A stretch of DNA of 64,000 bases, from IMG/VR virus record IMGVR_UViG_2718217859_000010. One strand, 5' to 3'. A program made the position numbers. Shown piece after piece: positions 6,001-9,000 of the stretch; within the stretch, counting starts at the first letter, position 1, and each line of letters starts with the position of its first letter. Origin of the DNA: a virus (taxonomy: Duplodnaviria; Heunggongvirae; Uroviricota; Caudoviricetes).

Positions 6001-9000
6001 AGGATTAACACCAGTCAAAACCTTTTTATCTACCCCTAATATTATTATATAATGAAATCGTTATAAATGCAAATGATTTTCATTATCATTTAGAGAAAAT
6101 AGCACTTTTTGCTAAATCATCTACTAATTGCTGAATCTCTTCACTTGCAGCCTTTAACGTGCTGGCGGTGTCTGTGATGGTTTGAGTGCACATCTTGGCA
6201 TCGTCCTCAATTAGCTCTAAATCGCTCACCAGAGAGATAAAATCGTCAAGGCTTACATTCACCTTCATTAAGCTAATAACGCATTGAGAGAGCGTGTAAT
6301 CGCATAAATCTGAATAGGCTTGATTTATTCTTGTTTGTAGTGAGATAGTCAGATCTAAAAGTTGTTCCATTGCATTGCTAATATCTTCTTCCATTATGCG
6401 GCTTCTCCTTGTAATGCATCATTAATCATATTCAATACGATGTTAAAAGGTGTCTTGAGCGTCAGCACTTCATCACGATAACGCTCTAATGCTTCGTAGT
6501 CTTCTGTTTCTTTTGCCAGTCGGATTAACTCAGCATAGTTTTTTGCATCAGACAGGATCATCTGAAATAATTGTGTTTCTTGAATATAGCCAATCATTAT
6601 TTTTCCTTTTTCGAATATTTTCATTGGGCGCTTATACATACACCCATCATTTTATTAGTTAGAACGTTTGTTAGAAGCTAATGTATCTTCTAAATGAGCC
6701 ATCAGATCGACTTCCGATGCACCACCTACACAATTATTGAAAGCGTTAAATCCCAAAAAATGATGATAGGAGCTAAACCCTAAAAGTTGCCAACGCTTCA
6801 GAGTGCCATCAGAAATTATTGTTTGTTTTCTTGTTCTTGGGCGAAAGTAAACGCCTGGCATTGACTGGATTATTTCTAATTCTTCATCGCTTAAAGGTGG
6901 AGATTCTGATTCAAGAATAAAGATTATCTCTTCCCCTGGATCGTTATTGGTGTGTGTCGGTGGACGTTGTCTTTTTGAATTGAAATTACTGTTTTTTTCA
7001 ATACGTTTTAAGTTATTCTTTTTCTTTCTTCCCATTTTCCCTCTTTTTATGTGGATTATAAAAACTTGATGCCATTGTTACGATGAATATCGCCATAAAT
7101 GCATTTGCCATATGTATTGCCCGATCTGTTGTTATTGATTGTTTGTGATAAACAATTCAAAATTTTTATTTAACTTCAGAAGACGAAATGTAGTGCTGTT
7201 AATCCCTTCATAATCCAGCACACCGAACGATGTAAAATGATTTAACCAATGATTGATGTGTTGTGCGCTGTAGCCGCCTAAACTACAAAAGCTAACCACT
7301 GTCGGTGGTGAGAACTCTATGTCCAAGACAGCTTTTAAAATGTGGTATCCGCTCTCAGTTATTTCAATAGTTTTGTTTCCTATAGTGATGTTATAAGTCA
7401 TTTATTCTCCTTAGAATGGTATCGAATCGTATATTTCACTTTTTTCTCTTAGAGATATTATCAGATCGTGAAAAGCCTGTTTCTCAAGATAGATATTCTT
7501 TGAATCTAATGCACGTTTTACAAAATCTTCTGTTTCTTCGTGCGGTGGTTTCTTCTTATCAAGGGAAAGAAGCCAAGTAAAAATTTCGGGCCGCTCAGGG
7601 AACTCTGATTCCTGTGTTTCTTCTTCAACGATGATTTCTGAAACATTCAATATTTCATTAGATTCGTTTTCTTTCTCAGAAGGATCAGGTAGTGATGACT
7701 CTCCAGGGGGAGTAATATGTGCATCTGTGAGAGGGAGCGCATTGTAAATCAAAGATGAAATATATGGTTCAGGATGTGGGGATGTTTCTAATAATCCCAT
7801 CTCTTTAAGATCGTTTATCTTACGTTTAATTGTTGATGCTGAAGACTTAAAAATCTTAGCTAATGTTTCGTGACTTTCATAACAATTAAGACCATTTTCC
7901 TGATAACTAAGAAATCTATAATAAAGAACAATGTGCAATAAATCTAAAACCTTACCTTCTGGAAATTCATTAGAGTAAATCTTTGATATATTATCAAACG
8001 TGTTATAGTATTTTGTAAAAGTTGGCTGGTTTATCATTAAAAATCTCCTTATAAATCACGCTTAATGCGCTACTAAAGTGAATGAGGATCACTTACCCTT
8101 TTTTTGTTTGATGTTCTCTGCTGCTTCAGTAATGATTTCTAACATCAAATCACTGACCATAATTTGCCTTTTCTTGGCTTCAGCAAATAAAATCTTGAAA
8201 ATTTCAGGGTCAACGTGTAGGTAAGTGCGTGGAATTGGTTTCTTGGTTTCGCTCATAGTTTTCTCCTTCTCCTGTTATTATTCTTTCTCTGCTCCTGCCT
8301 TACGCAGTTCATCAATAATTTTTAGTGCATCGTCAAAGCATTTTTCACGCTCTGGATAACCACAGCGTCGCGCTGTGTTCCTGTTCATCCTTACTTTAAA
8401 ACGATTAATCTCACCACGTTTCCAGGCTTCTACTACATCCTGTGGTGTGAAATATTTCATTAATTAACCTCCTATTCTATTTGGTTAAAAGAAAAAACAC
8501 CTTGCAAGCCTTGTTGGGCTTCAAAGTGCGGTGCATTGGTTTAATTACTTAGAGGATAAGAATGTTTTCTGTCCCTAATATTACTTTACCACGACTAAAG
8601 GCTTTTGTCAACCCCTAGCCATATAAATATTGATCATTTTCAGTAAGTTATGATATTTCTTAGCAATTCGTGCTCTTCTGTGTAGTGCTATTCTTCATTA
8701 TCCGCTAAAACGCTCTAAAACGCGTTCTAACGAAGTTTTGATAAATACAATACATTCCCTTATGTAGAGGCTGTTTAGCTCGCCTACGGCTTGATTTAAG
8801 CGGTAGAAACTTATTTAACCTTCAACTACTAAAACCATTCTTTCTTTTTTGTTTGTTGTTGGTTGTTGTCTGTGTCTATGTGCTAACATCGCTAACGCGT
8901 AGCACACAAGGTTATTGCACAAGTAAATTTCAATCGTTAGATGGTAGTTAGTTAATTATCGTTCTGCGCACAGCGCAAGACTATTTAGCCTTACGCAAGC

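Follow-up and report, generated by a model that had tools for sequence, protein, structure and literature searches.

A seven-gene operon in Escherichia coli as the putative replication module of a satellite-like island

We analysed a 64,000-nucleotide stretch of DNA (IMG/VR virus record IMGVR_UViG_2718217859_000010, hereafter the window), which is E. coli chromosome and carries seven co-oriented open reading frames (ORFs), p1 to p7, all on the minus strand at 6086-8460. We propose that these genes form the early/replication module of a satellite-like island and that p3 is an iteron-binding replication initiator, a reading to which we assign a probability of roughly 0.68. It draws on a comparison of related loci, in which the type of a repeat cassette upstream of the operon co-varied with the N-terminal domain allele of p3. 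An original prediction made from the window had likened the layout of the operon to that of the region in which a satellite or integrative element keeps its regulatory and replication genes, and this likeness gained support from an island at a tRNA-Thr gene, from p3 together with the repeat cassettes, from phage-like structural genes in the same island and from near-identical DNA held in common with lytic phages.

Repeat cassettes upstream of the operon are matched to the N-terminal domain of p3

Three exact GGTAGGTCA cores with a spacing of 22 bp were found on the minus strand at 9296-9348 (Tandem Repeats Finder period 22, 100% matches) and are referred to here as type A iterons. They were the only exact copies of this core within the 64 kb. 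The iterons are located ~0.85 kb upstream of the operon, at a distance of ~700 bp from its only good promoter, and they adjoin a stretch of 82-87% AT at 9189-9278 that is a candidate DNA-unwinding element. The flank holding this AT stretch was conserved in all island types, and no canonical DnaA box was found in the leader. Other islands carried a different cassette at the same site between conserved flanks, consisting of 3-4 copies of CCTAGGAAATGAGTTCC, 5-6 copies of the palindromic TGTAACGAnnnGTTACA or 5 copies of CCCnACAGAAnnCTGTTA.

The four repeat cassettes were mutually unrelated, and each was paired with one of the four N-terminal domain alleles of p3 (A to D). This match held in 20/20 loci (A 5, B 7, C 3, D 5), which differ in backbone and come from two chromosomal sites and, in one case, from a plasmid. 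Because the cassette type co-varied with the p3 allele, we read the two as an initiator and its iterons. The cassette site, fixed in place beside an AT-rich stretch, would then be a probable iteron origin, with p3 as its putative initiator.

p3 resembles phage replication initiators

Profile searches supported the assignment of p3 (7411-8037, minus strand, 208 aa), the putative iteron-binding initiator, as an initiator-type winged-helix protein. Residues ~30-130 matched PHROG 270 ('replication initiation protein') with an E-value of 5e-8, followed by PHROGs 428, 8102 and 678 ('replication initiation') at 1e-5 to 4e-5 and, down to 7e-4, by PHROG 186. All of these belong to 'replication initiation', O-like or DnaD-like families and none is a terminase. 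The helix-turn-helix (HTH)-like N-terminus described by the original prediction was thus borne out by PHROG 270, and also by Pfam HTH_36 at an E-value of 4.5e-5 with a score of 23.6 bits that falls below the gathering cut-off of 25. A precomputed PF13730 match was present on several members of the p3 family, and searches of NCBIfam and PADLOC returned nothing for p3 beyond generic winged-helix matches.

Alignment of the family (alignment A1) indicated that p3 is modular: a variable N-terminal winged helix is followed by a ALPLTDAHITPP junction, a linker that is acidic and of low complexity, and the C-terminal part. The N-terminal domain in the window is allele A. The ALPLTDAHITPP junction was invariant in the aligned alleles A-C and is lacking from type D. 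The C-terminal part came as two mutually unrelated alleles, both preceded by the acidic, disordered-looking linker and both ending in Y-(D/E)-x(1-3)-(I/L)-P-F. The tail in the window (within 7411-7440) is ...EIYDSIPF and that of the other allele is ...KVYEDFDIPF, and Y203, P207 and F208 were invariant in both. The C-terminal hexapeptide of E. coli SSB, DDDIPF, docks many replication and repair proteins (PMC5872125). We hypothesize that the p3 tail, which resembles the SSB tip, may bring partners of SSB to the origin.

Small terminases such as lambda Nu1 also place an N-terminal winged helix on repeated sites and dock the large terminase through a C-terminal tail, and satellites often carry a small terminase of their own. 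Given this Nu1-like layout and the absence of any other recognisable packaging gene from the island, p3 might instead be a small-terminase-like protein that confers packaging specificity, and the cassette a pac/cos-type site rather than an origin. We consider this unlikely, as every significant PHROG match of p3 was to a replication initiator or a replisome organiser, and where an oligomerisation domain would be expected the protein has its acidic low-complexity linker. The repeats also abut an AT-rich stretch as they would at an origin, and a 22-bp period with 3-6 direct copies is typical of iterons.

Seven coding genes form the operon

As an initiator gene p3 would stand third in an operon whose seven small ORFs proved to be real and to lie on the minus strand, with products of 55-208 aa. 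The first gene is p1 (8278-8460, 60 aa), which starts with an ATG behind AGGAGG, and it is followed by p2 (8089-8256, 55 aa), which encodes a small basic protein. Downstream of p3 lie p4 (7132-7401, 89 aa), encoding a small accessory protein, and the core genes p5 (6655-7035, 126 aa), p6 (6394-6597, 67 aa by the RefSeq start, 81 aa if the start is at 6639) and p7 (6086-6394, 102 aa). Each of the seven begins with an ATG and a good Shine-Dalgarno sequence, and all carry RefSeq annotation in other strains. Their stops and starts had been described as abutting. This holds for p6 and p7, which are the sole overlapping pair, share one base between the p6 stop and the p7 start (ATAATG) and are translationally coupled. 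The remaining genes are separated by spacers of 21 nt (p1/p2), 51 nt (p2/p3), 9 nt (p3/p4), 96 nt (p4/p5) and 57 nt (p5/p6).

The marked AT-richness claimed for the operon was evident from its GC content of 35.9% as compared to 50.6% in window positions 11761-64000. The long non-coding leader was confirmed as well and comprises 1,388 bp at 8461-9848 with a GC content of 35.2%. Its sole ORF (9414-9611, 65 aa) was rejected as a gene because it is frameshifted or truncated in most related loci, and the leader is therefore taken as non-coding.

Coding status was assessed by pooled pN/pS (nonsynonymous to synonymous polymorphism) over ~20 related loci. The values were 0.23 for p1, 0.47 for p2, 0.71 for p3, 0.26 for p4, 0.28 for p5, 0.23 for p6 and 0.52 for p7, with 0.12 for the island capsid gene. 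The value for p3 is inflated because non-homologous domains have been swapped. With pN/pS at 0.23-0.71, and so below 1 for all seven genes, the ORFs showed purifying selection rather than the lack of it that would have spoken against the original prediction, and these values support all seven as real coding genes. Degraded copies of the operon were also found. One is a locus (L018, IMG/VR UViG 3300045988_145383) in which p4 and p5 have been deleted so that p3 reads in frame into the C-terminal half of p6, and others are the p5-p6 fusion proteins P0167 and P0168 of the protein database.

The other operon proteins are small and largely unrecognised by profile searches

The original prediction had found none of the proteins recognisable. 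This remained true of p1, p2 and p4-p7, none of which had a match in Pfam, PHROGs, NCBIfam or PADLOC, and did not hold for p3 with its initiator-type winged helix. The minus strand, the probable origin in the leader, the accessory status of p2 and p4 and the link to lytic phages had been overlooked.

The core gene p1 was present in 20 loci with an invariant C-terminal half, GYPEREKCFDDALKIIDELRKA. p2 was absent from type B islands and replaced by a 43%-identical variant in islands of type D, so that it travels with the N-terminal domain allele of p3. Its earlier description as ribbon-helix-helix (RHH)-like was not backed by any match in Pfam, PHROG or NCBIfam, and PDB profile searches gave insignificant matches (E-values of at least 0.01 to designed helical proteins and 0.55 to one antitoxin). 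The label stays a guess from the sequence pattern, a short strand followed by two helices. p4 was deleted or truncated in some islands (L010-14, L017 and L020), and its sole match, to the winged HTH of Stn1_C at an E-value of 0.07, weakly suggests a possible winged helix.

p5 has a basic N-terminus and contains the motifs GEEIIFILE..SP.L..EE..IIQSMPGVYFRPRTRK and WQxLGF, and the motifs conserved across its family are GEE..FILE, SPxL..EE, GVYFKPRxRK and WQxLGF. The family formed 53 clusters among 5.8 billion proteins, nearly all of them named E. coli and one 'MULTISPECIES Enterobacteriaceae'. In a set of 1.84 billion proteins it formed 28 clusters at 50% identity. PHROG 5488 was matched by five of 19 distant members; it is a family of unknown function, and one distant homologue was located on a 1-kb contig. 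A scan of species-representative genomes with p5 found only two near-identical loci. One of them is on a 9.4-kb contig (L028, JAEWTL010000083.1) of a metagenome-assembled genome labelled 'Bacillota bacterium', where p5 shares 95% identity with its E. coli counterpart, and this contig is most likely an E. coli binning contaminant.

p6 is a helical core protein that was 97-100% conserved in most loci, with divergent forms of 41% and 66% in two loci. The upstream extension that would give the 81-aa form was not conserved in L020 or L022. p7 is acidic and was modelled by AlphaFold2 as a two-helix hairpin (helices 2-57 and 64-100) with a predicted local distance difference test score (pLDDT) of 78, and Foldseek returned no match to this model at E <= 0.001 in viral and PDB libraries. 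The protein formed 136 clusters, all from Escherichia, with hypervariable patches at residues 1-18 and ~58-72 and a variable LSE repeat (alignment A4). Our guess is that p1 and p4-p7 act on helper-phage or host proteins as small adaptor-like proteins.

The operon is flanked by candidate control signals and a structured spacer

The best promoter match of the region is a sigma-70-like site at 8583-8611 on the minus strand (TTGACA-17-TAAAGT with an extended -10 TG), which agrees with the consensus at 10/12 positions. Between this promoter and p1 lies a terminator-like hairpin (8486-8529, minus strand) made of a 13-bp stem at 8497-8529 followed by UUUUUUCUUUU at 8486-8496, and it ends 26 nt upstream of the p1 start. 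The stem was kept in a divergent locus (L005) in which the loop differs. This leader hairpin possibly serves as an attenuator or forms the 3' end of a ~90-nt small RNA.

A second candidate regulatory region lies at the other end of the operon. The spacer at 5094-6085 (minus strand) separates p7 from the structural genes, is free of ORFs and is rich in hairpins. Its folding z-score was -9.6 for the sense strand and -8.6 for the opposite one, as compared to values near 0 for coding regions. The segment 5401-6000 was the most conserved part of the island, with 93-100% identity across island types and 2-3 variable columns per 50 nt. At 5094-5460 whole stems differed in sequence between loci and yet kept their pairing, in part through G-U pairs on the sense strand. 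A scan of 4500-12500 against Rfam at E-values up to 1 gave no match. Just after p7 there is also a promoter-like site (6044-6073, minus strand, TTTGCA-18-TATAAT). The spacer might give rise to a long structured leader RNA or be a cis-acting site.

The island carries structural genes related to those of lytic phages

The operon is part of an island of ~12 kb that lies beside tRNA-Thr (thrW) and proA in other strains. The gene order begins with a tyrosine integrase, whose C-terminus at 6-431 (plus strand) marks the left side of the island, and continues with the Dit-like gene, the gene for a 613-aa protein, a small ORF, the capsid gene and ORFs of 124 and 69 aa. These are followed by 1 kb of non-coding DNA, the operon, 1.4 kb of non-coding DNA, a small serine recombinase and tRNA-Thr. 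We placed the right end of the island at 11760 because 48 bp of the 3' part of the tRNA-Thr gene (62557-62632) are repeated exactly at 11713-11760.

The structural block occupies 512-5093 on the minus strand and holds genes for proteins of 69 aa, 124 aa, the capsid, 91 aa, the 613-aa protein and the Dit-like protein. The capsid protein (3465-4493, minus strand) belongs to the lambda gpE family (Pfam Phage_cap_E, 3e-18), the 613-aa protein (1237-3078, minus strand) aligns with annotated phage tape-measure proteins and the Dit-like protein (512-1189, minus strand) matched Pfam Dit_like at 1.6e-27. Among 50,697 phage records the closest relatives of the capsid and the 613-aa protein were in Stephanstirmvirinae (phAPEC8-like phages, Justusliebigvirus) and related Pseudomonas phages, at 25-30% identity. 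As compared to phage inny, the Dit-like protein was 49% identical to the inny_106 region, the tape-measure-like protein 26% to inny_105 and the capsid 23% to inny_96. The island and inny also have in common the adjacency and order of tape measure and Dit, with a tape measure of 613 aa in the island and 659 aa in the phage. These relationships hint that the island may remodel both the head and the tail of its helper. Stephanstirmvirinae are lytic myoviruses of 147 kb, and the inny genome measures 147,483 bp with a GC content of 37.4% vs 35.9% for the operon. At 512-4884 (minus strand) the island has counterparts of only some helper-type virion genes, without a portal or terminase gene, and they stand in the order of the helper: the 124-aa ORF, which is decoration-like by position only, capsid, tape measure and Dit.

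The conserved core of the island (5400-7100) was present in 287/5,426 complete E. coli genomes. A single genome held as many as three copies, and one copy was on a plasmid. Members of the family were mosaic. The core consists of the serine recombinase, p1, p5, p6 and p7. Alternative alleles were seen for the capsid, tape-measure, Dit and integrase genes, and there is a second integration site. The serine recombinase (9849-10406, plus strand, 185 aa) is of the resolvase/invertase type and is transcribed divergently from the operon. It matched Pfam Resolvase at 9e-39 and PHROG 125 ('DNA invertase') at 4.5e-62, and every island variant covering this gene had it at 99% identity, even those with another tyrosine integrase and site. 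It may act in multimer resolution, excision or inversion. An invertible segment under its control was considered and rejected, as no inverted arrangement was seen among 20 loci. A literature search, incomplete in its coverage, found no published description of the island.

Tandem to the island, at the same tRNA-Thr site, lies a second element of ~50.8 kb (11761-62632). It contains an IS66-family element (12233-14848), an omptin gene (16363-17316), the lambdoid tail genes for a tail fibre (20281-22377), a Lom-like protein (22436-23035) and a gpJ-like protein (23103-26864), a Cro/C1-type HTH gene and an alpha/beta hydrolase gene. This adjacent lambdoid prophage was rejected as the helper, as the island structural genes match Stephanstirmvirinae instead.

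A phage locus with a chimeric gene shares DNA with p2 and p3

Window positions 8027-8268, which cover p2 and the spacer between p2 and p3, were 98% identical to phage muut and 96.5% identical to phage inny, and p2 itself was identical to the product of muut_153 at 54/55 residues (98%). The next phage gene after the p2 copy is inny_184 (L003 3289-4392, minus strand, 367 aa) or muut_154 (L004 3012-4010, minus strand, 332 aa). Both encode two tandem winged helices (two Pfam HTH_36 domains) followed by a C-terminal domain. The C-terminal domain contains a borderline MUG113 match, with a whole-protein score of 22.3-22.5 bits at a gathering cut-off of 22.3, and a T5orf172 match of 15 bits, which is below the cut-off of 20 bits. 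By tblastn, residues 254-366 of inny_184 had homologues in T5-like and other phages, in ORFs labelled 'homing endonuclease/GIY-YIG'. Only four phages had the complete set of two winged helices and a nuclease-type domain: inny, muut, BI-EHEC and Mt1B1_P17.

Both winged helices of the phage protein have close counterparts among the island alleles. The first 140 aa of inny_184 were 88-93% identical to p3 allele C, and the second winged helix was 89% identical to allele B over 93 aa. At the DNA level, a type C island and inny shared one contiguous block of 625 bp at 97.8% identity, which extends from the p2 ribosome-binding site through p3 codon 131, and the type B N-terminal domain matched the second phage winged helix over 261 bp at 93%. 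A motif search for the type A, B and C iterons found none anywhere in the inny genome, and BLAST of the iteron cassettes against all phage records gave chance matches only. The phage protein consequently lacks a cognate site of the iteron type in its own DNA, and the possibility that the chimera serves the origin of the phage through island-type sites was rejected. No ORF of inny ended in IPF, and two unannotated ORFs ended in LPF and FPF.

We infer that the phage chimera is a putative anti-island nuclease that is directed at the origin and has two specificities, and that the DNA moved from the island to the phage. The direct link of the window copy to these phages relies on p2 and the structural genes because its p3 allele A and the winged helices of the phage protein have only 35% identity. 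Allele A was by far the commonest p3 allele in contig counts of protein clusters, a prevalence compatible with escape from the phage nuclease.

Discussion

The comparisons described above suggest a working model for the operon. Transcription would start from the promoter at 8611-8583 and be held down at rest by the leader hairpin, and p2 possibly acts as a CopG-kind repressor of the early operon. To judge from the matched alleles and cassettes, the winged helix of p3 would bind the three iterons at 9296-9348. Binding would open the origin and lead to DnaA-independent replication of the excised island, and the acidic linker and SSB-tip-like end of p3 may recruit replisome or primosome proteins. 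The promoter-like site after p7 and the hairpin-rich leader of ~950 nt would then feed expression of the capsid, decoration-like, tape-measure and Dit genes. The phage response would have been to copy p2 and the DNA-binding domain of p3 and to fuse the latter to a nuclease domain of the homing-endonuclease type.

Several observations weigh against p3 as the initiator of a satellite-like island and against its proposed phage partner. The 20 loci are not independent events and represent only four allele classes, though on several backbones. The HTH_36 match of p3 is below the cut-off, and a PDB profile search of p3 gave weak, generic winged-helix matches only. An RHH fold for p2 has no profile support in Pfam, PHROG, NCBIfam or PDB profiles, five of the seven operon proteins (p1 and p4-p7) have no assigned role, and the AlphaFold2 model of p5 was unusable (pLDDT 53). 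Profile searches of the island found no terminase, portal, primase or helicase gene, which leaves the packaging route unexplained. The direction of the DNA transfer is a deduction, and the low identity of allele A to the phage winged helices applies to the very copy in the window.

Some features of the family would also fit a decaying prophage remnant, in which the operon is the functionless leftover early region of a defective phage at a tRNA hotspot. The structural module is incomplete, without portal or terminase, some copies contain insertion sequences, p4 is truncated or deleted in some loci and the L018 deletion has fused p3 to p6. Decay of this kind is improbable in view of the pN/pS of 0.2-0.5 in the core genes and of a compact gene set that is kept in 287 genomes with different integration sites and integrases. 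Nor would a remnant be expected to exchange matched initiator-iteron modules as units, to conserve its non-coding parts more strongly than its coding parts or to have exchanged DNA recently with lytic phages. A reading of p3 and p2 as transcription regulators only, in an integrative element or defence operon with the repeats as a remote operator and p4-p7 as abortive-infection effectors, finds some footing in the RefSeq names of p3 ('transcriptional regulator' and 'helix-turn-helix domain-containing protein'), in weak winged-helix matches to Csa3/CasR-type regulators and in the common interference of satellites with helper phages, but is very unlikely given the distance of the repeats from the only good promoter, the lack of PADLOC matches for the other operon proteins and a putative phage nuclease whose copied DNA-binding domain is best explained by a target in essential DNA, such as an origin.

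With p3 taken as an iteron-binding initiator, the island seems to behave like a satellite of the large lytic Stephanstirmvirinae, the relatives of phAPEC8, inny and muut. [quoted passage not shown] Such a family would have an iteron replicon whose initiator draws in the replisome by mimicking the SSB C-terminal tip, and would use its own capsid, tape-measure and Dit proteins to rebuild the head and tail of the helper. The phage would answer with a dual-specificity nuclease and a captured p2 that maybe silences the early operon, and the prevalence of type A would reflect escape from that nuclease.

The PLE of Vibrio is the closest parallel. Its initiator RepA with its iterons and the ICP1 nuclease Odn, which combines a RepA-like DNA-binding domain with T5orf172, are experimentally established (PMC8263062). 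Both systems pair a chromosomal island, AT-rich and with many small orphan genes, with a large lytic myovirus. Both have an initiator, putative in the E. coli island, with an exchangeable N-terminal DNA-binding domain and its own iterons in a non-coding region, and both face a phage gene that joins the copied DNA-binding domain to a nuclease domain of the T5orf172/GIY-YIG type. They differ in that there is no sequence homology between them, p3 being of the HTH_36/phage-initiator type without a RepA_N match (Pfam, E up to 1). The E. coli island has a tyrosine integrase at a tRNA and a small serine recombinase where PLE has a large serine recombinase, and homologues of capsid, tape-measure and Dit proteins are among its own gene products. 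In the phage protein of the E. coli system two different island-type DNA-binding domains stand in tandem, unlike in that of ICP1, and the phage also carries p2. On these grounds the island appears to work like PLE but is not a member of the PLE family.

Phage-inducible chromosomal islands (PICIs) and their capsid-forming relatives (cfPICIs) are islands of ~10-15 kb with an integrase and a regulatory/replication module, and cfPICIs have their own HK97-fold capsid gene. The E. coli island is similar in its integrated state, size, integrase, regulatory/replication module and capsid gene. It differs in that profile searches of the island did not find AlpA, the Pri-Rep primase-helicase, small terminase, portal, protease or head-tail connectors and recognised only the capsid and Dit-like proteins, in that tail genes are present and in that its structural relatives are virulent Stephanstirmvirinae and not temperate phages. 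By gene content, then, it is not a PICI or cfPICI.

Other comparisons concern single parts of the operon. p3 shares with lambda O-like and DnaD-like initiators and with the Rep proteins of iteron plasmids an N-terminal winged helix for direct repeats by an AT-rich region and, putatively, a C-terminal part for protein recruitment. It is much shorter than the O-like and DnaD-like proteins, at 208 aa as compared to ~300-450 aa, and the match covers the winged helix only. In place of a known helicase-loader-binding domain, its C-terminal part has an acidic linker and an end like the SSB tip, and the island iterons lie outside the initiator gene. The pMV158-type copG-repB operon has a small RHH repressor gene followed by an initiator gene, much as the small basic p2 lies directly upstream of p3 in one operon. 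The parallel is limited by the missing profile support for the RHH fold, the absence of p2 from type B islands and the fact that p3 is not a rolling-circle Rep. Satellite P4 controls immunity by termination of its leader transcript and encodes the alpha primase-helicase. The layout here, with a terminator-like hairpin between a strong predicted promoter and the first early gene, is reminiscent of P4, but there is no homology, no CI-like RNA was identified here and the hairpin would have its role by analogy.

If these proposals are true, E. coli, the best genetic model, has a satellite of large lytic phages, and a role would be given to seven 'hypothetical protein' genes in the complete genomes that carry the island. 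About 5% of complete E. coli genomes would then contain an element likely to interfere with phages used in phage therapy (relatives of phAPEC8, phi92 and rV5). With p3 there would be an initiator with an SSB-tip-like tail that is open to testing, and an arms race of the PLE/ICP1 type would have arisen independently in another host-phage pair.

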